DNA from: an uncultured Enterobacteriaceae bacterium
Lineage (GTDB): Bacteria; Pseudomonadota; Gammaproteobacteria; Burkholderiales; SG8-39
DNA: 64,000 bases
Direction: 5' to 3'
Assembly (NCBI GenBank): GCA_964400745.1
Contig: CAYNVY010000001.1
Coordinates: forward strand, 13,560 to 77,559
The position numbers and the translations under genes were made by a program. Under the pieces are notes generated by a model, which saw only the letters and a list, made by a program, of their open reading frames with translations, was not told the DNA's origin and searched no databases. The first letter of the stretch is position 1; the number at the start of each line of letters is the position of its first letter. This document shows positions 1 to 63,077 of the stretch, one piece after another.

Positions 1-255
1 GGCCCGCGGCCGGAGCGGCCTTTCTTCGTGGACAAACTCGCCGAACAGATTCCCTATTACTTGGCGCGTCACAGCGTCAAGCCGGGGATCACCGGATGGG
101 CGCAGGTGCGCTATGCCTACGGCGCGTCAATCGACGACACCGTCGAAAAACTTCAGTACGATCTCTATTACGTGAAGAATCACGGCCTGTTCCTCGATCT
201 GATGACCATCATTGCGACTATCGAAGTGGTCCTTTGGGGCAAAGGAGCGCGATAG
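1..255 (+). CDS. C-terminal fragment (5'-truncated by window edge) of an EPS priming sugar transferase (polyprenyl-phosphate glycosyl-1-phosphate transferase, Bac_transf family)
   Basis: Frame +1 is open from nt 1. The tail ...SVKPGITGWAQVRYAYGASIDDTVEKLQYDLYYVKNHGLFLDLMTI... is the conserved C-terminal catalytic block of WbaP/EpsB-type transferases. Stop TAG at 253-255. Confidence 0.85.
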   Translation, partial: GPRPERPFFVDKLAEQIPYYLARHSVKPGITGWAQVRYAYGASIDDTVEKLQYDLYYVKNHGLFLDLMTIIATIEVVLWGKGAR

Positions 256-1431: not shown

Positions 1432-4233
1432 TCATTTCTTCAGCTGCTTCAGCAAATCCATCGCCTCGGCTTCCTGAGGAAACTTGATCCCGGTCGACTC
1501 GATTCGCTCCAACTCGGCGCGGGCTTTGGCTTTGTCGCCCATTTTCAGATAGGTCTGAGCAAGGTGAAATCGAATCACCTGAGCCTTGGGTGCGGCTGCA
1601 ACCGCTTTTTGCAGCAACTCGACCCCGCGGCTTGTGTTCCCCTGCTCCGACAGCATCCATCCAAGGGTATCGGCGATGTCGGGACTCTCCGGCTTCAACT
1701 TGTAGGCCCGTTCGGCCGTTTCCAACGCGCGCTTATCCTTCGTCTGCTGATAGGCCCACGCGAGGTTGTTGAGGATCACCACGTTATCGGGCTGTTTGCG
1801 CAGGAGATACTCGTAGTGTTCGATCGCGCGCTTGTGGTTTCCTTCATTGAGAGCGCTCTCTGCCGCGTAGAGCCGCACGGGAACGTCATCCGGTGAATCT
1901 TTCAGCCATTGCGACAGTTTGACATCAGCTTCGGCACGCTTCCCGCCCATCGCGCTCGCCGCATGCAATTTGATCAGCATGGGGCCGCTTTTTCCGATTC
2001 CGAAGGCGGTCTCATATGATTTGATCGCCTGGGCGTAATTTTTTTCTGTCATGCGCACATCCCCCTCCAGCAAATGGCCGGCGGGAGACTTCGGCGCCTG
2101 CTTTTGCATCTGCTGCGCGATCTTCACCGCCTCCGCGTGGCGCCCGGCGCGAATCTCCAGTTCCGCCATGGCGCGCTGCGCATCCTGGAAATCCGGCTTC
2201 AAAGCGAGCGCTTTCTTCAGCGTGCCGGCGGCCGCGGTCATGTCGTTTGCCAGCGCCTGTGCGCTTGCCAGATAGTAGAGCGCGAGCGGTGAAGCGGGCT
2301 GCAACTTGACCAGCTTTCCATAGGTCGCAAGCGCCTGATCTTTCTCCCCGGCGGCCACCTGTATCTTGCCCAGCGTGTCCAGGCTCTCCGCGCTTTCCGG
2401 ATTGGCTGACTGCGCCTTCTGCGCCACATCCAGCGCCTTCTTCAGTTCTCCCGCTTTGGCGTACGCTTGCGCGAGCATCAGCTGCGGTTGCAGCGCGCCG
2501 GAACTGGCATTCACAGCGCGCTCGAGCCAGGCTATGCCTTCCTTCGGCGTGGCGCCGATCTGCGGAGCGAGATTGGCAAGAGCCAGCATGGCCTGCACGC
2601 TATTCTTGTCTTTTTCGAGCATCGTCTCCAGGCGCTGGCGCGCGAGTTTCGGATTTTTTTCCTGCAGGTCGATTTGCGCGAGATTGACCGCCGCGGGCAC
2701 GTACGTCGGCTGCAACTCGAGCGCGCGCTCGAGCAGCTTGCGCGCCGCGGGGATATCCTTCTTGGCGAGGTACACCGAAGCCTTCAGATTGTAGGTCAAG
2801 GGATTGTCCGGCTGCTTCTTCTCCAGGGATGCAAGTGCCTTCAGCGCCTGGTCGAAGTTCGAGCGCTGCAGGTGCGACATGATCAGCACCAGGTCCGCCT
2901 GGTACTTTCCCGGATCCAGTTGTATCGCGGACTCGAGATCGGCAAACGCGCGATCGGTTTCGCCGGAGGCCAAACGCGTCAAGGCAAGGCCAGTGCGTGC
3001 GCCGGCGCTCTTGGGATCGAGTTTTGCGGCTTTGTCGAAGTATTGCGCCGCCTTGGTGAATTCATTGCTCTGCAGGTACAGGTCGCCGGCGAGTGCCAGT
3101 ACCGCCGCGTCCTCCGGGGCCTGCTGCAGCGCCGGCTGCAGCACTTCAAGGGCGCGCGGCAGACGACCGCTCTTCGCCAACGATGCAATCAGCAATTTGC
3201 GCGCATAAAGATTGCCGGGCGCTTGTGCCAGAGCCTGTCCCAAGTAGGTCTGGGCCTGATTGTGAGAGCCCAGTTCGGACTCCACCGCACCTGCGAGCAA
3301 CACGCTCGGCATGTGAGTGGGCGCCACCTTCAGAACCTGCAATATCTGCTCCCGCGCCGCGGCAAAGTTGCGTTTGCGCAGCTCGATCAGCGCCTGCATG
3401 TAGTGCGTCATCGGGTTGTTGGGCGCGATTTTGCGCACCTCGTCTATGTGCTTTCCGGCTTGCTCATAGCTGCCGGCTTCGATCTGTATCGAAGCGATGC
3501 TAAGCCGCGCCTGCACGTTCCTGGGATTCAATCCGATGACTTTCTCGTAAGCCGCCGTCGCGCCCGCCTGATCGACCTTCATTCTCGCCAGATCACCCTT
3601 GAGCAACCAGGCCTCGGTGCTGTTCGGCGTGCCGGCAAGCACGCGCTCGATCAAGCGCAAGGATTCGTCGAATTTGCTCTCTCCGGCCTCCAGCCGCGCC
3701 TGCGCCAGCAACGCTTCTGCGAATTCAGGCTGTTTGGCGAGGGCCTGCTCCAGCAGCTTTCGCCCTTCCTCGCGGCGGTTGAGTCCGATCGTGGCCAGTG
3801 CGCGCAGCGTCAGAACCTGCGCCTGCACCTGATTGTTCGGTTCGCCGCCCTCCAGGCGGATCTTGTCCAGAACCTCTTGAAACGCGCCCTTCAGCAGCAG
3901 CAGTTTGCCCAGGGCAGGAACGGCTTTCGTCTGGTCAAAGCCGAGTTCCAGCGCCCGGCGCAGGTCGACTTCTGCCAACGCCAGATTTCCCGAGTCCATG
4001 TAGGTCTCGCCCAACAGGAACCGCGCTTCGGGGTGGTCGGGCGATTTTTGCAGCAGGTTCTTCAAATGAATGATTGCCGCGGCGTAGCCGCCCTTCTCTC
4101 GCTCCTGCCTGGCCTGCGCGATGAGCTGATCCGGACTTTGCGCCTTTTCTCCGCATCCTCCCAGGAAGAGCGCGACCGTGAGCAACGCCAGAAGGCACAC
4201 CTGGCGCCCTGCGACAAATCTTGATCCATTCAT
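1432..4233 (-). CDS. prsT: PEP-CTERM system TPR-repeat lipoprotein
   Basis: Lipoprotein signal MNGSRFVAGRQVCLLALLTVALFLGGC, followed by about 900 aa of tandem TPR repeats. GGAAGG lies 8 nt upstream of ATG 4233 (the ORF track starts at GTG 4242). Size, architecture and position beside xrtA match PrsT. Confidence 0.85.
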   Translation of the reverse strand: MNGSRFVAGRQVCLLALLTVALFLGGCGEKAQSPDQLIAQARQEREKGGYAAAIIHLKNLLQKSPDHPEARFLLGETYMDSGNLALAEVDLRRALELGFDQTKAVPALGKLLLLKGAFQEVLDKIRLEGGEPNNQVQAQVLTLRALATIGLNRREEGRKLLEQALAKQPEFAEALLAQARLEAGESKFDESLRLIERVLAGTPNSTEAWLLKGDLARMKVDQAGATAAYEKVIGLNPRNVQARLSIASIQIEAGSYEQAGKHIDEVRKIAPNNPMTHYMQALIELRKRNFAAAREQILQVLKVAPTHMPSVLLAGAVESELGSHNQAQTYLGQALAQAPGNLYARKLLIASLAKSGRLPRALEVLQPALQQAPEDAAVLALAGDLYLQSNEFTKAAQYFDKAAKLDPKSAGARTGLALTRLASGETDRAFADLESAIQLDPGKYQADLVLIMSHLQRSNFDQALKALASLEKKQPDNPLTYNLKASVYLAKKDIPAARKLLERALELQPTYVPAAVNLAQIDLQEKNPKLARQRLETMLEKDKNSVQAMLALANLAPQIGATPKEGIAWLERAVNASSGALQPQLMLAQAYAKAGELKKALDVAQKAQSANPESAESLDTLGKIQVAAGEKDQALATYGKLVKLQPASPLALYYLASAQALANDMTAAAGTLKKALALKPDFQDAQRAMAELEIRAGRHAEAVKIAQQMQKQAPKSPAGHLLEGDVRMTEKNYAQAIKSYETAFGIGKSGPMLIKLHAASAMGGKRAEADVKLSQWLKDSPDDVPVRLYAAESALNEGNHKRAIEHYEYLLRKQPDNVVILNNLAWAYQQTKDKRALETAERAYKLKPESPDIADTLGWMLSEQGNTSRGVELLQKAVAAAPKAQVIRFHLAQTYLKMGDKAKARAELERIESTGIKFPQEAEAMDLLKQLKK

Positions 4234-4309: not shown

Positions 4310-5839
4310 TCAACGCTGGGTCGATATTATAATTGCCCGTTCCAGCGAATCGCCCATGTCGCGCATAAATTCATCGAGCACCCTGGTTGCGGCGTCAGGG
4401 GATGCGTTCGCTTTGGTATAGATCGCGACCCAGGCCGAGCTATCGCCGCGTCCCTGAATGCGTGCGAGCAACTGCCGGAACTTTGCCTGAATGTCGCTCC
4501 CGATAGAGGCGCCGTCTATCCAGTACCATTGCCACGCGAGGATACGATCCCCGCGGCCCAGCACGACCCCGGTCTTGAGCTCGAGGGGCTTGCCGGATAT
4601 TTCCGTATGCGCGCGTCCGCGATCGGCCAAACTCCAATTCGGATTGTCCGAATCCACGAACTGATTGACCGAACTCACCAGTTTCGAGTTCCAGGTCTGA
4701 TTCTCGAAGATTCCGGTAAAGACTTCCACCCGGCTTCCGTTCTTCTCGAAGCTCTGCATGCGCACCCGCCTCGGGTTCTTCAACTCGGGGGTCCACTCCA
4801 CCGAACGCTTGTCGACAGGTGACCATCCACGCTGCGACACCGCACCAGCGATGTCGATCGCGCGATCCTGCTGGCTGCGCAACAAGACCGTTTCGACGAG
4901 CGGCCAGGCAGCCAAAGCAGCGAGCATCAGGGCTGCCGCGACGGTCGCCCGCCCCCCGGAGGACCTTTCCGGCCCGGCACAATCGATTGCGCAAGGCTCT
5001 AGACTGACCGGCACTTCATCGTCCTGAACTTCGCGAAATCGCCATCCCAGCCAGCCATAGCCGAGAAGAAATACGGCAAACAGTATCCAGCCAAAAGTGC
5101 TGTGATCGTCCCGAAGCAGGCGATTGTCACTGACATGGGCGATCATCATGGTCAGGTAGGCGCGCATCCAATTTCCGACGACTCCGATGACGATGGCGCC
5201 GCCAATGAAAAGGATGCGCTTCAGTGTCGATCGATACATGCTCCAGGCATACAAGACGCCGAGCATCAGGCAGGTAATCAGGTACTTGATACCGCTGCAC
5301 GCGTCGGCAATGGACCAGCCGCCGGACGGGATCACGAAATAGGCGCCCTCCCGATAAATCGGAACCCCTGAGGCCTGTATGCCCGCGAAGGTCGCCTTTG
5401 CCGTCCAGTTCACCAGGCTTGGTATCAGCGGGCCTTCTGCCGGAATGGCGAAAAGCAGGAAGGCGAGGGGAAAGCTCAGCGCAGCCAGCCAGCGTGGACC
5501 AAGGACTGTCAGCACTGCGAACGGGACCATTGCGATCACAGCCAGGTCTGTCAGGAGGCGCACGAAAACCAGTTCCCCGATCAGCCAGATGGAACCCGCA
5601 GCGATCAACCCGGCCACGCCCCACCACACGCTTCGAACCGGCAACATGGCCAGTTCAAAGCGCTGGCCCCAGAGGAGCGCGAAGAATATCGGCAAGACAA
5701 TAGTACGGTGGGTATAGTTCTCGGCGCTCGTTCCCGCCAAGTCGACCAGCACATAAAATGTGGGCCAATACAAGGCGACGATCACCGCGAAAATCGCAGC
5801 GACAAACAGAGGCCCAAATATCAGTGGCCGTCGCACCAT
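4310..5839 (-). CDS. xrtA: Exosortase A with C-terminal EpsI-like domain
   Basis: Polytopic N-terminal half carries the exosortase catalytic signature ...WSIADACSGIKYL... (Cys), ...GNWMRAYL... (Arg) and ...DDHSTFGW... (His). An EpsI-like periplasmic domain of about 200 aa follows. Likely start is MVRRPLIFGPLF (ATG 5837-5839); the 43-codon upstream extension to 5968 is Arg/Gly/Ala-rich. PrsK/PrsR/PrsT neighbours indicate the XrtA type. Confidence 0.85.
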   Translation of the reverse strand: MVRRPLIFGPLFVAAIFAVIVALYWPTFYVLVDLAGTSAENYTHRTIVLPIFFALLWGQRFELAMLPVRSVWWGVAGLIAAGSIWLIGELVFVRLLTDLAVIAMVPFAVLTVLGPRWLAALSFPLAFLLFAIPAEGPLIPSLVNWTAKATFAGIQASGVPIYREGAYFVIPSGGWSIADACSGIKYLITCLMLGVLYAWSMYRSTLKRILFIGGAIVIGVVGNWMRAYLTMMIAHVSDNRLLRDDHSTFGWILFAVFLLGYGWLGWRFREVQDDEVPVSLEPCAIDCAGPERSSGGRATVAAALMLAALAAWPLVETVLLRSQQDRAIDIAGAVSQRGWSPVDKRSVEWTPELKNPRRVRMQSFEKNGSRVEVFTGIFENQTWNSKLVSSVNQFVDSDNPNWSLADRGRAHTEISGKPLELKTGVVLGRGDRILAWQWYWIDGASIGSDIQAKFRQLLARIQGRGDSSAWVAIYTKANASPDAATRVLDEFMRDMGDSLERAIIISTQR

Positions 5840-6272: not shown

Positions 6273-6929
6273 TCAGGCGGCGAAACGGCGCCGGAGGAAC
6301 CCCAGCCCAAGCAGCCCGAGTCCGAGAAGCGACAGAATGCCCGGCTCAGGCACGGTAACAGTGGAATTGAAGCTGCTGGCGCCGGCGCCCTCGTGGGTGA
6401 TCGTGACGACCTGTTTGAGGTCAAACCCATCGATGGTAGTGGTGACGCCCGTGCTTTCGCTTCCGCCAAACGCGGGGCCGAACGTCGGCCCCAACGGCCC
6501 TACGCTATTCACCCAAGCGCCGGACAGGTAAGCATCCACACCGACGTTACCCGCCGTGCCACCACCAATCGAAGTCATGAGGGAATAGTTACCGATTGGG
6601 CTGGTGAAGTCGTTGCCTGTCGTCCACATGCTGATTTGGAGCGTTCCCGCCCCGGAGGAATTATCGATAGAGTTCAAGTCGATTCCCGCATTCCCGTCGG
6701 GGGCAAAGCTGAGGGCCGTTGACACGTTAAGAGTCCAGACTCCCAAACTGCCGATCCACGTGACAGCATTAGAAGCAGAATTGAAGTCACCGACACCGCC
6801 GTCCGCGATTACCACGGCGGGGTTGGTGCCGTCATACAGGCTAAGCATCACCCCGGCTTGAGCCGGCGCGGCAGCCAAGGCGGTAGCGCTGCACACTAGA
6901 GAGATGCTCGCCAGTTTTTTGATGTTCAT
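6273..6929 (-). CDS. PEP-CTERM sorting-domain protein A (exosortase cargo), 218 aa
   Basis: Signal peptide MNIKKLASISLVCSATALAAAPAQA with GAGGAG SD 6 nt upstream of ATG 6929. C-terminus ...TVTVPEPGILSLLGLGLLGLGFLRRRFAA has the VPEP motif, a TM helix and a basic tail. No Cys in the mature part. Confidence 0.9.
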   Translation of the reverse strand: MNIKKLASISLVCSATALAAAPAQAGVMLSLYDGTNPAVVIADGGVGDFNSASNAVTWIGSLGVWTLNVSTALSFAPDGNAGIDLNSIDNSSGAGTLQISMWTTGNDFTSPIGNYSLMTSIGGGTAGNVGVDAYLSGAWVNSVGPLGPTFGPAFGGSESTGVTTTIDGFDLKQVVTITHEGAGASSFNSTVTVPEPGILSLLGLGLLGLGFLRRRFAA

Positions 6930-6991: not shown

Positions 6992-7007
6992 AGCAAAGAT
7001 TGGGCCA
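6992..7007 (-). promoter_or_regulatory. Sigma-54 (-24/-12) promoter of PEP-CTERM gene A
   Basis: Gene-strand sequence is TGGCCCAATCTTTGCT, with GG and GC at the canonical 12-nt register (consensus TGGCAC-N5-TTGCW). It lies 63 nt upstream of ATG 6929 and an AT-rich tract precedes it. Confidence 0.65.
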
Positions 7008-7080
7008 TATATAATATTATCCTTTAAAACAATGTATTAGATGCTTTCTCTACCAGCGGCGCAATCCGAGATGGCGCGAG

Positions 7081-7097
7081 TGTAAGAAGTTTCGCGC
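7081..7097 (-). promoter_or_regulatory. Candidate enhancer (UAS) site for the sigma-54 activator, gene A
   Basis: Gene-strand sequence GCGCGAAACTTCTTACA matches 12/17 positions of the gene-B dyad TGTCGAAAAATCTTACA (CGAAA..TCTTACA). It starts 90 nt upstream of the T of the -24 element. The left TGT half-site is not conserved. Confidence 0.2.
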
Positions 7098-7260
7098 CTG
7101 CACTTGCCCGATTTCCTGCAGTCCGACCGGCATGCGCACGGCAGATATTAAAAAAATGTCTGTTAATCAAATAGTTATACTAATATTCCAGCGCCAGGAC
7201 CAGTGTAAAACTCTCCGACAATCCCGCTTCCCCAAAGGGCACGGCCGTCGGCCGCGACGC

Positions 7261-8613
7261 TCAACGCAGCCCAAAGCGATCCAGCAATTCGTAGAGCGTA
7301 GGCCGGCTGATACCGAGCAGCTCCGCCGCTTTGGTCAGATTGCCGTTGGCGCGCCCGAGCACGCGAGTCACCGCCCGTTTTTCGGCTTCCTCGCGCACCT
7401 GGCGCAAATTCAGCAGGTCTTCTTTTGCGTCGCCCCCAAGGCCGACCTCTGCGGCGCTGATGACGGCGCCATCGGCCATGATCACCACGCGCTTGATGCA
7501 GTTTTCCAGCTCGCGCACATTGCCCGTCCAGGGATGCGCCTCGATTGCATCGATCGCATCCGGAAGCAGGGTCATCGGGCCGCGCCGCTGCTCTTCCGCA
7601 AAACGGCGCACAAACGCGTGCGCGAGCAGGCTCGCATCGCCCGGCCGCTGTCGAAGCGGCGGAATTTCGAGCACGATCTCGGCCAGGCGGAAGTAAAGGT
7701 CCTCGCGGAACTTGCCTTGCGCGATCATGTCCTTCAGTTTCTGGTGGGTGGCGCAGACAATGCGCACATCGACCGGGATCTCGTCGCGCCCGCCGACGCG
7801 CTCGATCACCCGTTCCTGCAGAAAGCGCAATAGCTTCGCCTGGAGCGCGTGCGGCAGATCGCCGATTTCATCCAGAAACAAGGTTCCCTTGTGCGCCGTC
7901 TCAACCTTTCCGATGGTCTGCTTTGCCGCGCCGGTAAAGGCGCCCTTCTCGTAACCGAACAGCTCGCTCTCCAGCAGCGCTTCGGGAATCGCCGCGCAGT
8001 TGATCGCGACAAAGCGCTCCTTTTTCCTGGCTGAAAGCTCATGCAAGCCGCGGGCGAACAGTTCTTTTCCGGTACCGGACTCGCCCAGCAGCAGTATCGT
8101 CGCGGTTGTCGGGGCGACCTTCTCGATGGTTCGGCAAATGCGGAGCATCTCGGCGTCGCGACTGAGGATCCCGGCGAGCGCGGTCGGCTGCGTACCCGAC
8201 TGCAGGCGACGGTTCTCCTCCTGCAACTCATACAGGCGGTAGGCGCGCTCTATGGTGAGGCCGAGCAATTCCGGTTCAAACGGCTTGGCGCAGAAGTCGT
8301 AGGCACCCAAGCCGATCGCCTTGAGAGCGTTCGCATGGTCATCTTGTCCGGTCAGGACGATCACTTTCGCATAGGGCGCAAGCGCGAGGAGTTGCTGCAA
8401 CAGGGCGAATCCTTCGGTCGGATCGTCCGGGTGCGGCGGCAGTCCCAGGTCCATCGTTACCACCGCGGGCTCGTAACGGCGCATTTGCGCGATGGCGCTT
8501 TCCAGATCGTCTGCCACGATGGTTTCGTTGCGATCGAACGCCCAGCGCATCTGCTTTTGCAGCGCAAGATCGTCCTCCACGATGAGCAGCGGCTTGCGCT
8601 TCGCGGCGCTCAT
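7261..8613 (-). CDS. prsR: PEP-CTERM-box response regulator, sigma-54-dependent transcriptional activator (NtrC family)
   Basis: Receiver domain (LLIVEDD...VVTMDLGLPP), AAA+ domain with Walker A LLGESGTGKE and the sigma-54 contact motif EKGAFTGA, and C-terminal HTH AAELLGISRPTLYELL. ATGA start/stop overlap with prsK at 8610-8613. Confidence 0.9.
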   Translation of the reverse strand: MSAAKRKPLLIVEDDLALQKQMRWAFDRNETIVADDLESAIAQMRRYEPAVVTMDLGLPPHPDDPTEGFALLQQLLALAPYAKVIVLTGQDDHANALKAIGLGAYDFCAKPFEPELLGLTIERAYRLYELQEENRRLQSGTQPTALAGILSRDAEMLRICRTIEKVAPTTATILLLGESGTGKELFARGLHELSARKKERFVAINCAAIPEALLESELFGYEKGAFTGAAKQTIGKVETAHKGTLFLDEIGDLPHALQAKLLRFLQERVIERVGGRDEIPVDVRIVCATHQKLKDMIAQGKFREDLYFRLAEIVLEIPPLRQRPGDASLLAHAFVRRFAEEQRRGPMTLLPDAIDAIEAHPWTGNVRELENCIKRVVIMADGAVISAAEVGLGGDAKEDLLNLRQVREEAEKRAVTRVLGRANGNLTKAAELLGISRPTLYELLDRFGLR

Positions 8614-10754
8614 GCTGCGGCCCCGGTGCGTGCAACGCTGTCCGCGAGCGGCAGAAACACCTGGAATCGGGTGCCGTCGTTGAGCGAACTCTCTACCGCG
8701 ATGCGCCCGCCGATGCCGTTGACGTACTGAATGCTTTCATACATGCCGATGCCCATCCCCTGAGGCTTGGTAGTCTGGTACGGCCGGAACAGCCGCTCGC
8801 GCACGAATTCCTCGGTCATGCCGGCCCCATTGTCGGCGATCTCCACCAGGGCGTAGCTGCCATCGGGAACCGCGCGCAAGCGAATGCGCCCGCCACCTTC
8901 CTGCGTCGCCTCGATCGCGTTCTGAACGATGTGGCCGAGTACGCGCTCGATGCGATCGTCGTGGGCAAATGCGCGCAGGCTCGACCCGGGCTCGAACTCG
9001 ATCGACGCCCGGTGCACTTCCTTAGTCTTGATCACCCGCCCGATCAATTCGCGCAACTCGACCGGGCGCGGCTTTTCCATCGGCGTCGTCCCCGTTCTGA
9101 GTTGCAGCATGAGCTGATTCATGCGCCCGACGACATTTTCTATGGTTTCGAGCATATCACGCTGAAACTCGGGATTGTCGCGATGCCGTTCGGCATTCTT
9201 CAGCAGCAGGGCGAGTTGCGCGACGAGGTTCTTGAGGTCGTGAACGACGAAAGCCGACATGCGGTTGAAGGCGTCGAACTTCTCGGTTTCCACCAACGCT
9301 TCGTTCGCGCGCATATGTGCCAGATAGCTGGCCGCCTGCCGGCTGGCGGTTTTCAGCAGGTCGAGCACCTCCCAATTCACGTCCATCGGAGCCCGCGGTC
9401 GCGCCAGGACGACGAACCCGATGAGATCGACCCCGCTTGCGAGCGGAACGACCAACCAAGCCTCTTTCATGTTGGCGAGCCACTCGGGCAGCACCAGTTG
9501 CGGATAGCGATCGGGAAACGCGGCGACCTCGTCCAGATTGATCACCCAGCCGGTGCTGTTCAAGAACGCGACGAGCGAGCCCGACGCCGGCTCGCTTTCT
9601 CCGATTTTCTGGAGACTTAGCCGCGCCATCTGGCGCAGCGCGCCGTCGCGTTCGATCCAGATTGCGCCGCCTACGCTTTCAACCAGATCGGCCAGAGCGC
9701 GCACGACCTGTGCGTAGAGGTTTATCCCCTGAACCGGCGCTCCGAGCGCCCGGGTAAAGCGCAGCCATTCGCCGCGGTATTCGTAGCGAAACGAAAAGAA
9801 ATGCTTGCTGACGAAAACCTTCAGCCAGGCGCGCAGGCTTCCGGAGAGCACCAATGCGCCCAGGCAAAGCAAAGCCGAAAACACAAACGCAACCTGCAGC
9901 GTTTCACCCCAGCCCCCGCCGAAAAAGCGCACCCAGTAGCCGGCGCCGGCGACGATCATCAAGTAGGCACCGGCCACGAACAAGGCGGTCGAATGCAAGA
10001 CCACGCCGCGCGAAACGTGCCAATCGATCGTCCAAGCCGTGTTTCGCTTCGTCGCCAGCGCCACGAACAGGATTACCAGCGCGTGGGCGATGCCCCGGGC
10101 GGCCCACATCGCCGGATCAACGCGCTGAAACAGCACCGCACCCGAATACGTCAGCAGGTCGAACGCGAACATGCCCGAGAGCCCGACCACCAAGGGCTTG
10201 ATCGCCCAGCGTCCGTTCTCCGGCGTGCGCCGGTAGAGTTGCTCGTTCAGCACGAGCCCGAAGACCGAAGTGCAAAGCAAGGCGGCGAACGCCCCGACCG
10301 GCCACGCTCCAGCCGCCGCGCCCAGCCACGGCGGGGATTGCGGCAGGACCGCGCCCGCCAGCAGCAGCGTGCCAAGTATGGTCGACGGCCAAGCCGGCGG
10401 GACGACGCCGTTCGCGACCGCGTTCCCGCCGCGCCCGGCCTTCAGAAGAAACAGCAGGAAGACAAGCCAGGCACCGAGCCGAATGGCATCGAGCAGGCGC
10501 GCCAGCCACCAAAGGCCGGCATCGGGGAAGATGAGCATCGCCAGCACGCAGCCCGCCCAGAGGGCGCTTGCCACCACGGCGCCGACCAGAATCGATGCGC
10601 GCGCGCCGCCGCGCCAGCCAAGAGAGAACTGCACGGCGAACCCGGCGAAAATCAATGCTGCAAGGCAATAGCTCAGTATCGCCGGGGTGTACGGGAAGGC
10701 ACTGGTCACGATGCGGAATCTCGGCTCAAGGCGATACAATACTACCGTGGCCAT
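8610..10754 (-). CDS. prsK: PEP-CTERM system sensor histidine kinase
   Basis: About 330 aa of multi-pass membrane domain, a GAF-like linker, the H-box FVVHDLKNLV and the ATPase G-box GMGIGMYES. Translationally coupled to prsR. Confidence 0.9.
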   Translation of the reverse strand: MATVVLYRLEPRFRIVTSAFPYTPAILSYCLAALIFAGFAVQFSLGWRGGARASILVGAVVASALWAGCVLAMLIFPDAGLWWLARLLDAIRLGAWLVFLLFLLKAGRGGNAVANGVVPPAWPSTILGTLLLAGAVLPQSPPWLGAAAGAWPVGAFAALLCTSVFGLVLNEQLYRRTPENGRWAIKPLVVGLSGMFAFDLLTYSGAVLFQRVDPAMWAARGIAHALVILFVALATKRNTAWTIDWHVSRGVVLHSTALFVAGAYLMIVAGAGYWVRFFGGGWGETLQVAFVFSALLCLGALVLSGSLRAWLKVFVSKHFFSFRYEYRGEWLRFTRALGAPVQGINLYAQVVRALADLVESVGGAIWIERDGALRQMARLSLQKIGESEPASGSLVAFLNSTGWVINLDEVAAFPDRYPQLVLPEWLANMKEAWLVVPLASGVDLIGFVVLARPRAPMDVNWEVLDLLKTASRQAASYLAHMRANEALVETEKFDAFNRMSAFVVHDLKNLVAQLALLLKNAERHRDNPEFQRDMLETIENVVGRMNQLMLQLRTGTTPMEKPRPVELRELIGRVIKTKEVHRASIEFEPGSSLRAFAHDDRIERVLGHIVQNAIEATQEGGGRIRLRAVPDGSYALVEIADNGAGMTEEFVRERLFRPYQTTKPQGMGIGMYESIQYVNGIGGRIAVESSLNDGTRFQVFLPLADSVARTGAAA

Positions 10755-11714: not shown

Positions 11715-13277
11715 ATGAGCGAATTACTTCGTCAAGCGGCCCTCCACCTGCGAGGCATGTGGAAATATCGATGGCTGGGGCTGTTCGTCGCCTGGGCAGT
11801 CGGGGCGGCCGGCGTCGCGACCATCAAGCTGATTCCGGACAGGTACGAAGCTGCGGCACGGATCTACGTCAACACCGAATCGATTCTCAAGCCGCTCATG
11901 GTCGGCATGACGGTTCAGCCAAACGACAACCAGCGCATTGCGATGCTCAGTCGCATCGTCATCAGCCGCCCCAATGTGGAGAAGATCGTTCATACCGTCG
12001 GCTTGGACGCCAAGGCGGAATCGAAGGAAGACGTCGACCGGCTGATCGACGATGTGCTGAAGGTACTGACCATCAAGGACACCGGAAGCGTGAATCTCTA
12101 CATGCTCACCTTTCGCGACACCGTGCCCGAGCGGGCGAAGCGCGTGGTGGAATTGCTGACCTCGACGTTCATCGAATCCGGACAGGGAAGCAAGATCAGC
12201 GACGCGGACGCCGCGAAGAAGTTCATCAACGAACAGATCGTGATCTACGAAAAGAAGCTGCAGGATGCGGAAAACCGCATGAAGGAATTCAAGCTGCGCT
12301 ACCTGGGCATGAGCCCGGGTGAAGGCAAGGACTATTTTGCCCGCATGTCGGATATCACCGCCCTGTTGAACCAGGCGCAACTCGAGCTGCGGCAGGCGGA
12401 GAACTCGCGCGACGCGTTCAGGCGCGGGCTGGAAAAGGAAGAGCGCGAAACGGTGCCGACTGCGGTGGCGCCGAGCAATAGCGGAGGATCGATCGCCGAA
12501 ATCGACGCGCGCGTCGACGCGATCAGGCGCAACCTGGATGCCTTGCTGCTGAAATTCACCGAGAATCACCCGGACGTGATGGCTGCCAGGCGCGTGATCA
12601 AGGAGCTGGAGGAACAGCGCCGCCAGCTGCAGCTCGCGCGCAAGCCCGGCGATACGCCGGCGCCGCCGCCCGCCGCGAGCGGCCCGCGCGCCTCCGATCA
12701 ACTCAAGGTGGCGCTGGCCGGAGCCGAAGCCAATGTCGCCGCATCCAGTACGCGCGTGACCGAATACACGGCGCGCTTGAATCGCCTCAAGGAGTCGGCA
12801 AAACTGCTACCGCAGCTCGATGTCGAACTCGCCCAACTCAATCGAGACTACGACGTCAACAAGAAGAACTATGAAAGTCTGGTCTCACGCCGCGAATCGG
12901 CAAGCATGTCGAGCGAAATGCAGTCGGTATCCGGCGTCGCGGATTTCCGCTTGATCGACCCGCCGCGCGTTTCTCCCAAGCCGGTGGCGCCCAACCGGCT
13001 GATGCTGGTGCCGCTTTCGCTGCTGCTGGCGCTGGGAGCGGGACTCGCGGCCGCGTTTGCCGCCAAGGAGCTGCGCCCCACCTGCTATGATGTTCAGACC
13101 TTGCGTGAAGTTTCCGGACTGCCGGTATTGGGTGCGGTATCGATGATCGTCAGCGATTCGATGAAGCGAAAGCGAAGAATCGGCTTGATCGCGTTTCTGA
13201 CGGGAAGCGGAGCTTTTCTCGGCGCCTATATCGCCGTCTTCGCATATCTGGCTCTGCAGAGCGTGCGCGTTGATTGA
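11715..13277 (+). CDS. Polysaccharide chain-length determinant protein (Wzz/PCP family, PEP-CTERM-locus type)
   Basis: N-terminal TM (WLGLFVAWAVGAAGVATI), a long coiled-coil periplasmic region, a C-terminal TM pair, and ...PRVSPKPVAPNRLML... (the PCP proline-rich motif). Confidence 0.85.
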   Translation: MSELLRQAALHLRGMWKYRWLGLFVAWAVGAAGVATIKLIPDRYEAAARIYVNTESILKPLMVGMTVQPNDNQRIAMLSRIVISRPNVEKIVHTVGLDAKAESKEDVDRLIDDVLKVLTIKDTGSVNLYMLTFRDTVPERAKRVVELLTSTFIESGQGSKISDADAAKKFINEQIVIYEKKLQDAENRMKEFKLRYLGMSPGEGKDYFARMSDITALLNQAQLELRQAENSRDAFRRGLEKEERETVPTAVAPSNSGGSIAEIDARVDAIRRNLDALLLKFTENHPDVMAARRVIKELEEQRRQLQLARKPGDTPAPPPAASGPRASDQLKVALAGAEANVAASSTRVTEYTARLNRLKESAKLLPQLDVELAQLNRDYDVNKKNYESLVSRRESASMSSEMQSVSGVADFRLIDPPRVSPKPVAPNRLMLVPLSLLLALGAGLAAAFAAKELRPTCYDVQTLREVSGLPVLGAVSMIVSDSMKRKRRIGLIAFLTGSGAFLGAYIAVFAYLALQSVRVD

Positions 13278-48388: not shown

Positions 48389-48998
48389 TTGCCATTGAAT
48401 CGCGCGAAGCGTGAAAACCCATCAGGGGTGCAGCGTCGGCGATGTTTGTTCAAAGGCGTCTCTTGCATGCTCGTCGTCCGATGGGCATTTGGCACCAACC
48501 TAGGCAAGCCAACGCTCAGTTTGTGCATATGCTTAGTGCTGGACGCAAAATTCTGAAATCTAAAGAAATTGATGCGCCTATGTCATAATATCACTATGGT
48601 GATGACCTGCGCGAGGGCATGCTTGAGCAGGCTTCCTTGTTGAGAGATCAAAATGGGTTTGTCAGCGCATTCGGGCATTCTTCGTCGCATGTTTGTCGAA
48701 CATCGCGAAGAGCGCGGTTCAGCCTTTGGTCACATAGAGGGTGTTGATAGCGCGCGACCGGCGCACATCCGAAAAATGCGTTATGTAGAGGTTGTCGCGC
48801 CGTCTGATACAGCGGTGCAATCCGGTTGAGGTTGCAAGCGCAATAGCAGCCCCATTTCGGGGGATAGCTTTGGCTCTATTCTTGTTACGTCGGCGTGATA
48901 GCTTGGCAACAGTTAGCGCAATAGTGATGCCTCGTTCTCGTCGTATGTCCGCAATCCCGCTTCGGAGCAGAGCAGCATGATTAGTTGCGGAAGTCGAC

Positions 48999-50432
48999 GT
49001 GCAAATCCTTGATAAACGTTTAGATATCTGGCTTCCCACCTACGCCCTTGCGGCACCGGCACGTGCGTACCATCGTCTTCGTCGGCGGCAGCAACTGACC
49101 CATATCATGTTCTTGGTATGCGATCATTTCGAGCCTCGGCACGGCGTTGGCAATCCAGACCAGCCGTTCGAGCGGCTTCGGGCGTGGCGGACGGAGTATG
49201 CCCGATTCCAACAACAATGCCGCGACCGTTTTGGAACCAGTCCCTTGCATACCTGGTTCTATCCCCCGCACCATGGCGCCGAGCATCTTTCGAACCTTTC
49301 GGCAATGGCGTTTGAGGGCTTGGGCGAGGTGGAGTTGCACTATCACCACGACAATGACACAGTCGCGACGCTTCGAAATGGATTGAATGCTACTCTCGCC
49401 GAGTACCATCGATTTGGCCATCTCCTTGAGTCGGGCGCGTCCCCAAGCCCGGCGTTTGGGTTTATCCATGGGGATTGGGCTCTGAACAACTCTTTTGGTG
49501 GCAAGTACTGTGGCGTAAACGACGAGTTGACGCTTTTGCAGGAACTCGGCTGCTGGGGTGATTTCACCATGCCCTCAGGAAGGATCTGTCAGACACGCAA
49601 GATCAACTCGATCTATTACGCACGAAGCAATCCGGATAGCGCAAAGGGGCACGATTGGGGCATAGACGCACGCGTCGGCAGAAAGGATCCGGCGGGCCTG
49701 CTCTTGATGCAGGGTCCGCTCGGGATCAATTGGCTGGCCCCCGATCATCCGCGCGTCGAAAACGCCAGCCTGACCTCGGAGAATTGGGGCCGACCCGATC
49801 GCATCCGCAAGTGGATCGACTGCAACGTTCACGTAAAGGGCCGGCCGGAGTGGTTGTTCGTTAAGTTGCACACGCACGGTGCCATAGAGCGCGATTTCGA
49901 CGCCCTGTTCGGGGACAAGGCAATGGAAATGCACCGCGTCCTGAACGAGCAATACAACGACGGCAAGCGCTTTCGCCTTCACTATGTGACCGCCCGCCAA
50001 GCCTACAACATCGCCAAGGCCGCCGAACACGGTAAGAGCGGAGACCCTTCGGACTGGGTCGACTATCTGATCAAGCCGCCGGTCAATGCGTTCTATGCCG
50101 CCGACCGCAGACATGACGTCCGTTTTTGCACCCAATCCCGGCTGACGCTCGAAAATATCGAGGCCGGGGAAGCGGCACGCATACGCACGCGCACGGGCCC
50201 GATTCGGGAAATCCAGGGCCGGGTGACTGCGGTGGATATCGACGACGGTTCGGGTTGTCTGCGCATCGAAACAGCAGCCGCCGGGACCGAGGTATCGGTA
50301 CAGGTGCAAGCCCCGTTTCAGGTATGCGGCATCGCCGGCGGGACCGTGCTGGCGACACCGGACGCTTCGGATACAGGCGCGTTGCGCGTATCGGTGGACC
50401 GGCAGTGCACAGTCACGTATCGCCGTGATTGA
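48999..50432 (+). CDS. Hypothetical protein; His/Asp-rich N-terminal domain possibly of a metal-dependent carbohydrate-esterase-like fold
   Basis: Coding-like composition over 477 codons. Motifs FLVCDHFEP, FYPPHH, ELHYHHDND, FIHGDWAL and KLHTHG. No family recognised. GTG 48999 or ATG 49107. Confidence 0.6.
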   Translation: MQILDKRLDIWLPTYALAAPARAYHRLRRRQQLTHIMFLVCDHFEPRHGVGNPDQPFERLRAWRTEYARFQQQCRDRFGTSPLHTWFYPPHHGAEHLSNLSAMAFEGLGEVELHYHHDNDTVATLRNGLNATLAEYHRFGHLLESGASPSPAFGFIHGDWALNNSFGGKYCGVNDELTLLQELGCWGDFTMPSGRICQTRKINSIYYARSNPDSAKGHDWGIDARVGRKDPAGLLLMQGPLGINWLAPDHPRVENASLTSENWGRPDRIRKWIDCNVHVKGRPEWLFVKLHTHGAIERDFDALFGDKAMEMHRVLNEQYNDGKRFRLHYVTARQAYNIAKAAEHGKSGDPSDWVDYLIKPPVNAFYAADRRHDVRFCTQSRLTLENIEAGEAARIRTRTGPIREIQGRVTAVDIDDGSGCLRIETAAAGTEVSVQVQAPFQVCGIAGGTVLATPDASDTGALRVSVDRQCTVTYRRD

Positions 50433-59422: not shown

Positions 59423-59439
59423 TGTCGAAAAATCTTACA
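59423..59439 (+). promoter_or_regulatory. Candidate enhancer (UAS) dyad TGT-N11-ACA, gene B
   Basis: TGTCGAAAAATCTTACA starts 91 nt upstream of the -24 T (59514). Confidence 0.3.
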
Positions 59440-59513
59440 TGTAGCTTGCGGAGAGGTCATACGGTTTGCTCTAACTATTCTTAGAACACTGATATATATA
59501 CCTTTATTTTACT

Positions 59514-59529
59514 TGGCACGGTTGGTGCT
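59514..59529 (+). promoter_or_regulatory. Sigma-54 (-24/-12) promoter of PEP-CTERM gene B
   Basis: TGGCACGGTTGGTGCT: perfect -24 TGGCAC and a GC in the correct register, about 98 nt upstream of ATG 59627. An AT-rich tract (GATATATATACCTTTATTTTAC) lies immediately upstream. Confidence 0.7.
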
Positions 59530-59626
59530 TATAGGACTGACAAAGTCACAATGGATGTTCTGGTTTGTCAGCGCAAATGAAGATCAGAACTCCGTGGCAA
59601 GAACGATTTTCAAGAAAGGAAACATC

Positions 59627-60415
59627 ATGAGAAAGACCTTTAAGCATCGTGGATTGGCTTTGGCGTTCGCTGTGGCGGCGCTGTTCGGGGCTGAAGCGGC
59701 CATGGCGGCGCCGATGACTTTGACCACCGGCGACAAGATCGCTCTGGGATATGGGGCGGGTGCCAACGGTGACACATGGGGCGGCGGCGAGTTCCTTGTC
59801 AGCGGCGTCGCGGGCCAGGTCGCCCAGGGCGTGGGCGATAGCTTTTTCACCTTCTGTCTCGAGTACAGCGAACACTTCTCCCCCGGAAACCAGTATTTCG
59901 TACGGATCAATACGGGGGCGGTGAATGGCGGCTTGTCGACTACCGGGGGCTATGCAGACTCCGTTACGGACCCCAACATCGCCGCCAACTTCGATCCGAT
60001 AAGCCGGGCAACAGCGTGGCTTTACACCCAATTCATGACCAATGCCAGTTCGCTGGGTTATGACATGTCCGGCGGAAAGACCCAGACAGCTTCAGTCAAC
60101 CAGGCCCGGAACGACGCGTTCCAGCTCGCGATCTGGAAACTGGAAGGCGAACTCTCGGGCACCGTTCTGACGGCGTATAACGGCAATGCTCAAGCTCAGA
60201 CTTGGGTCACCGCTGCGATCGCCGGAAGCAGCAGCTGGACCGACACCGGGAACGTGCGCGTCATGAACCTGTACACCAATGCCAACCTGACCACGGGAGC
60301 TAGTCAGGACCAGCTCTACATGATGCCTGTCCCCGAGCCCGTATCGCTCGCCCTTCTCGGCCTCGGCCTTGCCGGGCTCGGTTTCGCCAGACGCAGAAAG
60401 CAGAGCGCCGCATAG
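59627..60415 (+). CDS. PEP-CTERM sorting-domain protein B (262 aa) with FCLE...FQLAIW motif pair
   Basis: AAGGA SD, signal peptide MRKTFKHRGLALAFAVAALFGAEAAMA, and C-terminus ...MMPVPEPVSLALLGLGLAGLGFARRRKQSAA. Single mature Cys (Cys77). Confidence 0.9.
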   Translation: MRKTFKHRGLALAFAVAALFGAEAAMAAPMTLTTGDKIALGYGAGANGDTWGGGEFLVSGVAGQVAQGVGDSFFTFCLEYSEHFSPGNQYFVRINTGAVNGGLSTTGGYADSVTDPNIAANFDPISRATAWLYTQFMTNASSLGYDMSGGKTQTASVNQARNDAFQLAIWKLEGELSGTVLTAYNGNAQAQTWVTAAIAGSSSWTDTGNVRVMNLYTNANLTTGASQDQLYMMPVPEPVSLALLGLGLAGLGFARRRKQSAA

Positions 60416-60441
60416 TAATTGTCGGCAGCCCTCAATACGGA

Positions 60442-60468
60442 CCCCGCTTCGGCGGGGTTTCTTTTTTG
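60442..60468 (+). terminator. Rho-independent terminator after PEP-CTERM gene B
   Basis: CCCCGC-TTCG-GCGGGG hairpin (60443-60458) followed by TTTCTTTTTT. Confidence 0.8.
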
Positions 60469-60733
60469 TGCACTTTCCTGGTGTACCCCCGCAGGCGGCG
60501 CAAGCTCTGAGATCGGCAAGCCCCCACTCTGGAGCACCATCGACGCCGTAGAAGCGCACCGGCGCGGCAAGACGGCCAGGCCGCATACGCCGTGCTGGAT
60601 ATCGCACAGATCGATGATCCGCCACCCTGCCGCGAACTACGAATTCGCGATCCCGCGTCAGCCGTTAGCTCGACGCACGCCCGGCGCTTGACAATGCTTT
60701 GCCTAACGGTACTGTCGAAGAAAAGCACAGCGA

Positions 60734-60751
60734 TGTCGGCAAGCCATCACA
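60734..60751 (+). promoter_or_regulatory. Candidate enhancer (UAS) dyad TGT-N12-ACA, gene C
   Basis: TGTCGGCAAGCCATCACA starts exactly 79 nt upstream of the -24 T (60813) and shares TGTCGGCAA with gene D. Confidence 0.3.
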
Positions 60752-60812
60752 TTGTCCCCGACGACGGCTTGTAACAGCATAATTACATGTATCTATACGC
60801 ATCTTCATGTAA

Positions 60813-60828
60813 TGGCACGGATCATGCT
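60813..60828 (+). promoter_or_regulatory. Sigma-54 (-24/-12) promoter of PEP-CTERM gene C
   Basis: TGGCACGGATCATGCT: perfect -24 and correct GG-N10-GC register, about 130 nt upstream of ATG 60957. Confidence 0.65.
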
Positions 60829-60956
60829 TAATAGTCTATATGCCTGCGCGGAAGCACTTACGTTGGCGGACTGCGGTTCGCTAAATGCAGAGATATCCGG
60901 ACAGTTGGCATGTGATTACTCTTATAGGACTTATGCATATGAAGCAGGGCCCGGCT

Positions 60957-61724
60957 ATGAAAATGAAATCCATCCTGTCCGCAGTTGCCGTCATCGGTTT
61001 GGCCGCTGCAAGTCAATCGGCCGCGGCAGCGACCATCGCCGTAAACTACGCGGGTTCAGCCAATTTCGGCAGCGGTGGCGTCGGCTACTACAACGGTTCG
61101 GTCGCACCCAACCCCGCTTCGTCCACCGCGCTGGTCGGTGTCGGAATCGGCGGCGACAGTTTCACTTCGGCGAATCACACGTACGATTTCTCCGTTACAG
61201 GTCAATTCAATACCTGGTGTGTCGACATCTACCATTGGCTGGCCGGCGGCGCGGTCACCTACAACGTCGCAAGCGGAGCTGATCTCGCCGCTTCACTCGA
61301 TACGCTACGGCCGGGGATTCCGAACGGTTCGACGAGGGTGAACCAGCTCATCCTGTTAGCCAACGACGTGTACAGCACGGTCAATACGAAGCTTGAGTCC
61401 GCGGCCTTTCAATTGGCCGTCTGGGCGGTCACCTACGGCAACGCTGACGGAACGGGACATTATTCCATCAACACGACGAACTCCGGCTTCAAGGTGGACA
61501 GCGGAACTGCGGGTTCGGCCTATGGCGTCTTGGCCAACAGCTGGCTGGCCAACCTGGGCACAGCAGCCGATACAGGAAGCTACAAGCTCGCTTACTTGAA
61601 TGACGGCACGGCGAACAATACGCAGGACATGGTCGTGTTCACAACTGTTCCCGAGCCTTCGGCTTTCTGGTTGGTCGCCTTCAGCCTGCTGGGCCTGGGG
61701 CTGGCAAGGAAAAGGTCGGCGTAG
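60957..61724 (+). CDS. PEP-CTERM sorting-domain protein C (255 aa) with WCVD...FQLAVW motif pair
   Basis: Signal peptide MKMKSILSAVAVIGLAAASQSAAAA and C-terminus ...FTTVPEPSAFWLVAFSLLGLGLARKRSA. Single mature Cys (Cys88). Start could be 60933-60963. Confidence 0.9.
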   Translation: MKMKSILSAVAVIGLAAASQSAAAATIAVNYAGSANFGSGGVGYYNGSVAPNPASSTALVGVGIGGDSFTSANHTYDFSVTGQFNTWCVDIYHWLAGGAVTYNVASGADLAASLDTLRPGIPNGSTRVNQLILLANDVYSTVNTKLESAAFQLAVWAVTYGNADGTGHYSINTTNSGFKVDSGTAGSAYGVLANSWLANLGTAADTGSYKLAYLNDGTANNTQDMVVFTTVPEPSAFWLVAFSLLGLGLARKRSA

Positions 61725-61874
61725 TCGCCGAAGAACTGCGCCATAAAGCTCACGCCCCCTGTCGCGTTGCTTCTGTAGCAGGGGAGGTCAAACCATCCGC
61801 CGCCTTCTGTTGGAAATGCGATCTTCTATTCGGACGCCTGCAACGGGCAAAGCTGCCCGGCTGCAGGCGAGCAT

Positions 61875-62027
61875 TCAGTTGTACTTGGGCCCGGCTGCCG
61901 GCCTGGCTTTCCTGAAAAAGATCTGCATCTGGAATTCGTGGAGGATCCAGATGACCGTGGCAATCAGGTACCAATACCAGGGCCAGTCGTACTGATACAG
62001 CAATATGCAGGCAATAAAGAGTGTCAT
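61875..62027 (-). CDS. Candidate small membrane protein (50 aa), unknown function
   Basis: ATG 62025-62027 is preceded by GGGGGAGGG (GGAGG 8 nt upstream). It encodes MTLFIACILLYQYDWPWYWYLIATVIWILHEFQMQIFFRKARPAAGPKYN (two hydrophobic/aromatic segments plus a basic tail). No homologue recognised. Confidence 0.35.
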   Translation of the reverse strand: MTLFIACILLYQYDWPWYWYLIATVIWILHEFQMQIFFRKARPAAGPKYN

Positions 62028-62241
62028 ATCTTGTCCCTCCCCCAAGTACCGGGCTTGCACGGCGATCGCCTGTGGCAGGCCGTTCGAATACCGCTAGCCC
62101 GCGTGGCTACCGGAGAGCCGAACCAGGCGAGAGGCTACTATCACTTCCCGGCAAAGGCAACTATCGAGACAGACGCAGGCATGCAGCCTTAATTGAACAA
62201 GATGGAGGTCCAATAACAGATGGTCGCATAGCGCTGAAATT

Positions 62242-62258
62242 TGTCGGCAATCTTGACA
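62242..62258 (+). promoter_or_regulatory. Candidate enhancer (UAS) dyad TGT-N11-ACA, gene D
   Basis: TGTCGGCAATCTTGACA starts exactly 79 nt upstream of the -24 position (62321). An overlapping second dyad TGACAG-N8-CTGTCA lies at 62254-62273. Confidence 0.35.
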
Positions 62259-62320
62259 GTGCCGTTACTGTCACAGCTAAGCTAAATCGTAACATTCTAA
62301 TTAAATGAACGTTTTTATTC

Positions 62321-62336
62321 AGGCTCGATTCGTGCT
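62321..62336 (+). promoter_or_regulatory. Sigma-54 (-24/-12) promoter of PEP-CTERM gene D
   Basis: AGGCTCGATTCGTGCT: GG/GC in the correct register. The -12 region GTGCTTATA is nearly identical to that of gene B (GTGCTTATA). It lies 49 nt upstream of ATG 62385. The -24 is weaker (AGGCTC). Confidence 0.5.
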
Positions 62337-62384
62337 TATAAGAGATGAGCAAATAGCGAAACCGCATTCTAAAGAGGTCAATGC

Positions 62385-63026
62385 ATGAAACCAATCCTGA
62401 AGATTTTGTCCACCCTCACTCTGCTCATGGGGATTTCCGGCACTGCCCAGGCAACCGTTATTGCTCTGACCGGTTTCGGTGACTTTGGTCCGGGGGCGAC
62501 ACAGCTGACGTTTGCGGGAGTAGCGAACGGGGCTTTATCGAACCACGGCGGGGTAACGTTCTCAGTCGGTGCGAGCACCGGTAACGTAGGCACTGACGGC
62601 ACACCCGGCCGCACGGGGCCAAGCGACGCTCAATATGTAGACAACGTCTTTTCTCAAACCGGGTACTACTACTCCCCCCTGGCATTGTCTTTCTCCGGCC
62701 CCATCGGCATGGTAGGCTTTGAGGCAAGAACCAACTCTCCCGACGCTTTGACTCTGACCGCGCAACTCATTTCCAACAACAACCTCGTTGGCACGATAAG
62801 CTACGCGGCCCCCGGGAATTCCAACTGGTCTTTCTATGGTTTCAGTTCGACCGTCGCATTTGACAGATTGGTAATTGATCCCGCCAACAATGCGAATGGT
62901 TACATTCGAATCGACAATCTGACTTTCCAGTCGACTTCCGTGCCGGAACCTGCCGCTCTCGGAATCCTCGGCCTCGGCCTAGCCCTACTCGGCCTCAGCA
63001 GGCGCAGGAAACAGAAAGCCGCTTAG
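62385..63026 (+). CDS. PEP-CTERM sorting-domain protein D (213 aa)
   Basis: Signal peptide MKPILKILSTLTLLMGISGTAQA and C-terminus ...QSTSVPEPAALGILGLGLALLGLSRRRKQKAA. No Cys in the mature part. Confidence 0.9.
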   Translation: MKPILKILSTLTLLMGISGTAQATVIALTGFGDFGPGATQLTFAGVANGALSNHGGVTFSVGASTGNVGTDGTPGRTGPSDAQYVDNVFSQTGYYYSPLALSFSGPIGMVGFEARTNSPDALTLTAQLISNNNLVGTISYAAPGNSNWSFYGFSSTVAFDRLVIDPANNANGYIRIDNLTFQSTSVPEPAALGILGLGLALLGLSRRRKQKAA

Positions 63027-63045: not shown

Positions 63046-63077
63046 CGAAGCTCCCGCTTCGGCGCTGTTTTCGTTTT
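63046..63077 (+). terminator. Possible weak terminator after PEP-CTERM gene D
   Basis: CGAAGC-TCCC-GCTTCG hairpin (63046-63061) followed by GCGCTGTTTTCGTTTTGG. Short stem and an interrupted T-tract. Confidence 0.35.

Follow-up and report, generated by a model that had tools for sequence, protein, structure and literature searches.

The PEP-CTERM box is a two-part regulatory element that was described upstream of 99 of 167 proteobacterial PEP-CTERM genes by Haft, Paulsen, Ward and Selengut (2006, BMC Biol 4:29; PMC1569441). It is composed of motif 1, a 17-nt sequence ending in TTTACA and predicted to be the PrsR site, and motif 2, a 17-nt sigma-54 element located 71 +/- 38 nt before the ATG, and the two are separated by a spacer of 62.8 +/- 10.6 nt; the names PrsK, PrsR and PrsT came from the phylogenetic profile of this box. 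Experimentally tested examples are the pepA genes of two bacteria, PEP-CTERM genes located beside prsT/prsK/prsR and carrying a TGGCAC...CTGCTT promoter. In Aquincola tertiaricarbonis RN12, pepA is RpoN1-dependent and the start mapped by primer extension lies behind TGGCAC/CTGCTT (Xia et al. 2023, BMC Microbiol 23:20; PMC9850573). In Zoogloea resiniphila MMB, pepA requires RpoN as well as PrsK/PrsR and exopolysaccharide synthesis is unaffected, as far as the work of Gao et al. (2018, Environ Microbiol 20:1677) is recounted in PMC9012009. Here, we describe four PEP-CTERM genes, A to D, in a 64,000-nt stretch of DNA (the window; GenBank assembly GCA_964400745.1, contig CAYNVY010000001.1, positions 13,560 to 77,559) from an uncultured betaproteobacterium. 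Positions are those of the window, and labels beginning with C denote contigs of the whole draft genome. The four genes are very probably single-gene units for exosortase-A cargo, each under an enhancer-dependent sigma-54 promoter of the PEP-CTERM-box type; we document where both motifs lie, that they are confined to cargo genes across the genome, how the spacers are phased and that PrsK, PrsR, PrsT and XrtA are present.

Both this type of element and its logic have been published before, with genetic support, and the window is an ordinary new example of them. As in the box of Haft et al., motif 1 ends in TTTACA and lies at a similar distance from the promoter (53-75 nt here, about 63 +/- 11 nt there), the -24 GG and -12 GC are found 48-128 nt before the ATG (about 71 nt there), the genes form single-gene operons behind long non-coding regions, and PrsK, PrsR and PrsT co-occur. 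Nothing essential differs, but here a GATTY sequence is conserved, positions -26 and -22 depart from the generic sigma-54 consensus, the spacers form three length classes that differ by about one helical turn, and motif 1 of gene C is degenerate. The initial annotation of this DNA had considered the regulon logic not yet defined at sequence level, a view that fails, since Haft et al. defined it in 2006 and genetic and primer-extension support followed. In Aquincola and Zoogloea, pepA transcription is RpoN-dependent (in Zoogloea also PrsK/PrsR-dependent) and exopolysaccharide synthesis is not, which is the cargo-specific logic that the initial annotation proposed. In contrast to pepA, genes A to D are known from their sequence alone, none of them reaches the NCBIfam floc_PepA cut-off (27-30 bits versus 80), and the priming glycosyltransferase gene here has a generic sigma-54 promoter as well. 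Beyond annotation the finding matters little: it maps the PrsR regulon of a single uncultured betaproteobacterium cleanly and on a sound statistical footing, with an explicit consensus for both motifs and the one-helical-turn stepping of their spacing as by-products.

Probable sigma-54 promoters of the cargo genes

Sigma-54-dependent promoters have their start about 12 nt after the GC and need RpoN together with an ATP-hydrolysing activator. The 16-mers put forward as such promoters upstream of the PEP-CTERM genes B, C and D lie exactly where the initial annotation placed them, and in position-weighted tests the observation is confirmed as genuine and statistically strong. On the plus strand, the -24/-12 promoter of gene B (59514-59535) consists of TGGCACGGTTGGTGCT (59514-59529) followed by TATAGG, with the ATG 97 nt on; that of gene C (60813-60834) of TGGCACGGATCATGCT (60813-60828) and TAATAG, 128 nt from the ATG at 60957; and that of gene D (62321-62342) of AGGCTCGATTCGTGCT (62321-62336) and TATAAG, 48 nt from the ATG. 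The gene A promoter is on the minus strand (TGGCCCAATCTTTGCT, 6992-7007; in its longer form TGGCCCAATCTTTGCTTTATGT, 7007-6986) and 62 nt from its ATG. Terminator-like hairpins follow gene B (60439-60460, plus strand, with a T run as in intrinsic terminators) and gene D (63046-63061, plus strand), so both look like single-gene units; for gene B, the hairpin suggests a single-gene operon.

The bare pattern GG-N10-GCT is too frequent to prove anything (213 occurrences in the window versus 173 expected); it was dropped as uninformative and position-weighted tests were needed instead. The whole draft genome (4.74 Mb in 401 contigs, 63.6% GC, 88% complete) was scanned with a generic sigma-54 matrix, which approximates the published consensus, and with a held-out PEP-class matrix, trained only on 12 PEP-CTERM promoters from contigs other than that of the window. 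With the generic matrix, a score of at least 10 is attained upstream of all 13 automatically called PEP-CTERM genes versus 84 of 2756 other genes (Fisher p = 5e-20), the background rate being taken from rough gene calls by a crude caller (a 1417-aa open reading frame (ORF) was split, for example) that was used for this purpose only. The initial annotation had proposed such a scan and named equal frequency before non-cargo genes as the outcome that would speak against it; enrichment at cargo genes is what is seen. The best non-cargo matches precede expected sigma-54 targets, namely the glutamine synthetase gene glnA, pilin genes and a urea-transporter gene, and the generic matrix thus behaves sensibly. 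Generic scores of the window promoters are 14.1 (B), 16.2 (C), 10.6 (D) and 15.5 (A), and PEP-class scores 20.7, 23.5, 25.9 and 17.0, respectively, which makes the promoter of gene D the poorest generic yet the best cargo-class match. Counting training sites, only 17, 5 and 3 of 9.46 million genome positions reach the PEP-class scores of B, C and D, and no position in a reversed-genome control reaches 20.7 or more.

These figures bear on the simplest rival explanation, namely that GG-N10-GC arises by chance in AT-rich intergenic DNA and that the genes are transcribed from ordinary sigma-70 promoters. The frequency of the bare pattern speaks for it, as does the generic score of gene D, which 3% of upstream regions attain. 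Against it stand the held-out ranks with their empty reversed control, the Fisher test, the composite sites described below, the conservation of the architecture across species and the lack of sigma-70-like sites between 59050 and 63250 (0 found versus 1.8 expected), and it is effectively refuted.

Genome-wide, 18 of the 21 PEP-CTERM genes with an assessable 5' end have the promoter element, with the consensus GGCWCGATTYRTGCTT. Both motifs are present at 15 of these 21 genes, including B and D, and three others (A, C and one on contig C166) combine the promoter with a weak or degenerate motif 1. One gene (C154, 7336-7404, minus strand) has a good motif 1 (score 25.8, spacer 54 nt) and a degraded -24 GG, TTGTATG instead of TGGCACG, which may reflect a decayed promoter or an assembly error. 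The last two genes (C13:35613 and C246:5821) have neither motif; each is the second of a tandem pair and probably rides in an operon. The resulting map of the PrsR regulon holds about 18 cargo genes and one possible non-cargo target.

Aligned over 19 promoters, the consensus reads nGGC(A/T)CG(A/G)TT(C/T)(R/T)TGCTT. The initial annotation had described a shared extended -12 box, and its core is borne out: T is found at -11 in 18 and at -10 in 17 of the 19, and GCTT is present in 10/10 box promoters of Sulfuriferula GW1, Thauera phenolivorans and Dechloromonas ARDL1. Beyond this core, an (A/T)TA had been ascribed to the box; it is restricted to the four window promoters and does not extend to the genome. 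The compilation of Barrios et al. of 1999 reportedly gives TGGCACG-N4-TTGCW as the generic sigma-54 consensus. The PEP class shares with generic promoters the GG and GC 10 nt apart, T at -14 and W at -11, and differs in being variable at -26, in having A/T at -22 and R in place of T at -15; owing to these departures, its generic scores (10.6-16.2) are lower than those of housekeeping sigma-54 promoters of the same genome (16-19). Within the -24/-12 spacer, GATTY at -20 to -16 is conserved in this genome and is absent as a conserved feature in the three other species, and positions -26 and -22 are relaxed in the cargo promoters here. From this pattern one might argue, rather doubtfully, that the PEP-CTERM-box promoters of this lineage are a distinct sigma-54 subclass, in which GATTY and T at -10 are conserved like GG and GC, and T at -26 and A at -22 are relaxed. 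If so, a second contact, by PrsR itself or another factor, may read the -24/-12 spacer, or the promoters may be kept weak for the holoenzyme so that some 20 cargo genes stay wholly silent without PrsR.

The predicted PrsR site and its spacing

Alignment of the upstream regions yields a second motif, GTCGGCAAATYTTACA(GTT). Its TTACA end precedes the -24 element by 53-75 nt in 14 cargo genes, and the motif is also present in two further cargo genes whose 5' ends sit on other contigs. Copies scoring at least 18.6 occur almost only before PEP-CTERM ORFs, and the two apparent exceptions are themselves the 5' ends of PEP-CTERM genes split between contigs (C261 into C105 and C390 into C364); the overlapping peptide sequences at these genes show the contig joins C261-C105 and C390-C364. 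Composite sites, in which motif 1 and promoter are separated by a spacer of 50-78 nt, occur 17 times in the genome and not once in the reversed-genome control. Gene B has a strong predicted PrsR enhancer site on the plus strand at 59424-59442 (GTCGAAAAATCTTACATGT; score 26.4), 74 nt from its -24 element, and gene D one at 62243-62261 (GTCGGCAATCTTGACAGTG; plus strand, score 18.7) with a spacer of 62 nt; both fit the 17-nt element ending in TTTACA, as GTCGAAAAATCTTACA and GTCGGCAATCTTGACA, respectively.

The motif 1-promoter spacers cluster at 53/54, 62/63 and 73-75 nt, in steps of about one helical turn. At a 10.5-nt period, the vector length R is 0.83 in this genome and 0.56-0.68 in the three other species (phasing is quoted as R values only, as the approximation for the Rayleigh p-value breaks down at high z). 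Such phasing would be expected if an upstream activator met the sigma-54 polymerase on one face of the helix. By analogy with published work on related bacteria, PrsR would be the protein that binds motif 1 and transcription would be RpoN-dependent. In this mechanism, the sigma-54 holoenzyme would wait in a closed complex on GGCWCG-N4-RTGCTT, phosphorylated PrsR, provided by the neighbouring prsK-prsR pair, would bind motif 1 one to several helical turns upstream and reach over the AT-rich spacer, which is probably bent, to touch the polymerase, and PrsR would use ATP to open the promoter. Many cargo promoters share an AT-rich element (TATGTTGTTGATAT / ATATTGATTAT / CATTGTTTT, for example at 59485-59500; loosely of the type TTGTTGATA or TTGATT) that lies 25-35 nt ahead of the -24 element. 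This is possibly an IHF site or an intrinsic bend; a full IHF consensus was matched in only 1 of 17 spacers.

Shared motifs could also have been spread by recent duplication of gene-plus-promoter cassettes, that is, by paralogy instead of a maintained regulatory code. Such relatedness is visible among the upstream regions on C100, C315 and C173 (68-71% spacer identity), and the conservation of GATTY, which is seen here and is lacking in the three other species, would fit it. However, most spacers are at background identity (median 54%; 49-59% for all pairs among A to D), while both motifs and their phasing are kept, which argues that, outside those three regions, the motifs are held by selection and were not carried by recent duplication. 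The same two motifs are furthermore found in other genera, both in the genomes compared here and in the work of Haft et al. (PMC1569441), and a paralogous origin is very improbable.

The upstream sites of genes C and A are less clear. Gene C has a weak, degenerate motif-1-like site on the plus strand at 60735-60753 (GTCGGCAAGCCATCACATT; GTCGGCAAGCCATCACA), which scores 1.2 with the matrix and would be a putative PrsR site by its register: it keeps GTCGGCAA and ACA at the canonical spacing of 62 nt. Gene A has a weak, half-site-like motif 1 on the minus strand at 7078-7096 (CGCGAAACTTCTTACACTC; spacer 73 nt, score 6.7) and a distal motif-1-like site at 7201-7219 (GTCGGAGAGTTTTACACTG; minus strand, score 13.9), 196 nt before the -24 element. 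It could thus be proposed that the sigma-54 promoters are real and that some of them, C and A especially, respond to a different enhancer-binding protein and not to PrsR. At least five more activators of the NtrC family are encoded in the genome, which also has many non-cargo sigma-54 promoters, for example before glnA, pilin genes and genes for multihaem cytochromes. Yet the promoters of C and A score 23.5 and 17.0 with a PEP-class matrix trained elsewhere, and C has GTCGGCAA..ACA at the canonical spacing of 62 nt and A has TTCTTACA at 73 nt, so that we regard a different activator as unlikely.

Control by PrsR through the PEP-CTERM box remains our preferred explanation, and several points weigh against it: motif 1 is degenerate in gene C and weak or distal in gene A, the promoter of gene D has a low generic score, we know of no biochemical demonstration that PrsR binds motif 1, and neither TIGR02395 nor PF04552 detected rpoN in the draft (401 contigs, 88% complete). 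Of 12 same-genus genomes, 11 have the gene, and strong sites precede glnA and other classical sigma-54 targets here, so its absence is most likely an assembly gap. The draft holds at least six NtrC-family activators and many strong sigma-54 promoters despite the lack of a detected rpoN.

Sites outside the cargo genes and in other genomes

The initial annotation had found no comparable sigma-54 match before the biosynthetic operons of the window, and this stands: correctly oriented intergenic sites before them score 9.4 at best, versus 10.6-16.2 at the cargo genes. Its conclusion that PrsK/PrsR specifically switch on the cargo proteins holds in its mechanism, which fits all tests (both proteins are encoded in the window, and B and D have a predicted PrsR site at canonical spacing), but 'specifically' is slightly too strict in view of two promoters that lie just outside the window and were therefore invisible to the earlier reader. 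The first belongs to a TIGR03013 priming glycosyltransferase (531 bits; contig C1, 12423-13814), the 3' end of which forms window positions 1-255. Its promoter, TGGCACGCGCTTTGCTATAAGT (C1 12369-12384), is located 38 nt before the ATG and about 1190 nt left of window position 1, and is a near-consensus sequence and the best generic sigma-54 site of the contig (18.4). With the PEP-class matrix it scores only 9.5, and motif 1 was not found at canonical spacing before it, so another activator may drive the gene. This promoter hints that, unlike in Zoogloea and Aquincola, initiation of the polysaccharide may be under sigma-54 control here, through such another activator. The second is a box-like site before a 322-aa HD-domain gene divergent from the glycosyltransferase gene, with motif 1 scoring 18.6, a spacer of 75 nt and motif 2 scoring 8.6, and this gene is a possible extra, non-cargo PrsR target. 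The site reads GTCGTAAAAACTTACACTT, spacer 75, CGGCTCGGTTCTTGCG and is found on the minus strand at about C1 12006; the gene is the ORF at L001 1820-2788 (minus strand).

A candidate fifth box within the window, TGGCTCTATTCTTGTT at 48871-48886, was rejected, as it has GT and not GC at -12 and no in-register motif 1. The sequence resembles a PEP-class promoter and is located 112 nt before the gene of a 477-aa unknown protein at 48999, after a 600-nt non-coding gap.

In other genera, roughly half of the PEP-CTERM genes of Sulfuriferula GW1, Thauera phenolivorans and Dechloromonas ARDL1 have this architecture upstream, GCTT included, whereas a complete genome of the same order has 17 PEP-CTERM genes, no PrsR above the family cut-off, and neither motif before any of the 17. 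In this small sample the box therefore tracks PrsR: the three PrsR-bearing genera have it and the same-order genome with no PrsR above the cut-off does not. Among 20 relatives, the strict composite pattern has no match because none has PrsR over the cut-off and most are without PEP-CTERM genes. In the flanks (6 kb) of 80 PrsR homologues, the matrices of this genome gave only four composite matches, none of them before a PEP-CTERM gene, because cargo genes are dispersed and the matrices are tuned to this lineage. Within the genus, none of 12 genomes has a PrsR match above the cut-off, and only two of them have PEP-CTERM genes, with one match each; the closest PrsR homologues (70-75% identity) are those of an uncultured betaproteobacterium, Thauera, Azoarcus, Zoogloea, Propionivibrio and Dechloromonas. 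Possible readings are horizontal acquisition of the system or a mixed bin.

Genes of the locus and further sigma-54 sites

By its gene content, the window is best described as a canonical exosortase-A locus. Cargo genes B (262 aa; 59627-60415, plus strand), C (255 aa; 60957-61724, plus strand, with an alternative ATG at 60939) and D (213 aa; 62385-63026, plus strand) have signal-peptide-like N-termini, and their C-terminal PEP-CTERM domains exceed the Pfam cut-off, with PF07589 scores of 31.1, 25.5 and 30.7 bits, respectively; TIGR02595 scores 28.5 bits in B, also above its cut-off, and 24.3 bits in D. Gene A (218 aa; 6273-6929, minus strand; PF07589 30.5 bits) is located between prsR and xrtA. 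The gene for PrsR, the sigma-54-dependent response regulator and predicted PEP-CTERM-box activator, is found at 7261-8613 (minus strand; TIGR02915 715.9 bits, cut-off 502.6), followed in coordinates by that for the histidine kinase PrsK at 8610-10754 (minus strand; TIGR02916 770.2 bits, cut-off 300). The TPR lipoprotein gene prsT (1432-4233, minus strand; TIGR02917 935.9 bits, above cut-off) and an xrtA-epsI fusion encoding exosortase A (4310-5839, minus strand; TIGR03109 243.6 bits, above cut-off, together with TIGR02914) lie on the other side of gene A. The export operon begins at 11715, and XrtA-associated glycosyltransferase, amidotransferase and acyl-CoA ligase genes come after it.

Elsewhere in the genome, paralogous hydrophobic proteins of 108-123 aa are encoded at C5 44895-45221, C28 13901-14227 and C374 1825-2196 behind a common promoter, TGGCACGGC(T/C)(G/C)ATGCTTATAAG; no motif 1 of at least 15 was scored upstream of these three genes, and the promoter resembles the -24 element of gene B and the -12 extension of gene D. 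The strongest sigma-54 sites of the genome (scores 16-19) are located on contigs C14 (9129, 20994, 25080, 27248, 28294 and 30524) and C255 (2173). Five of them precede genes for paralogues that are about 220 aa long and contain CxxCH haem motifs, and together these sites look like a separate, sigma-54-controlled multihaem cytochrome regulon.

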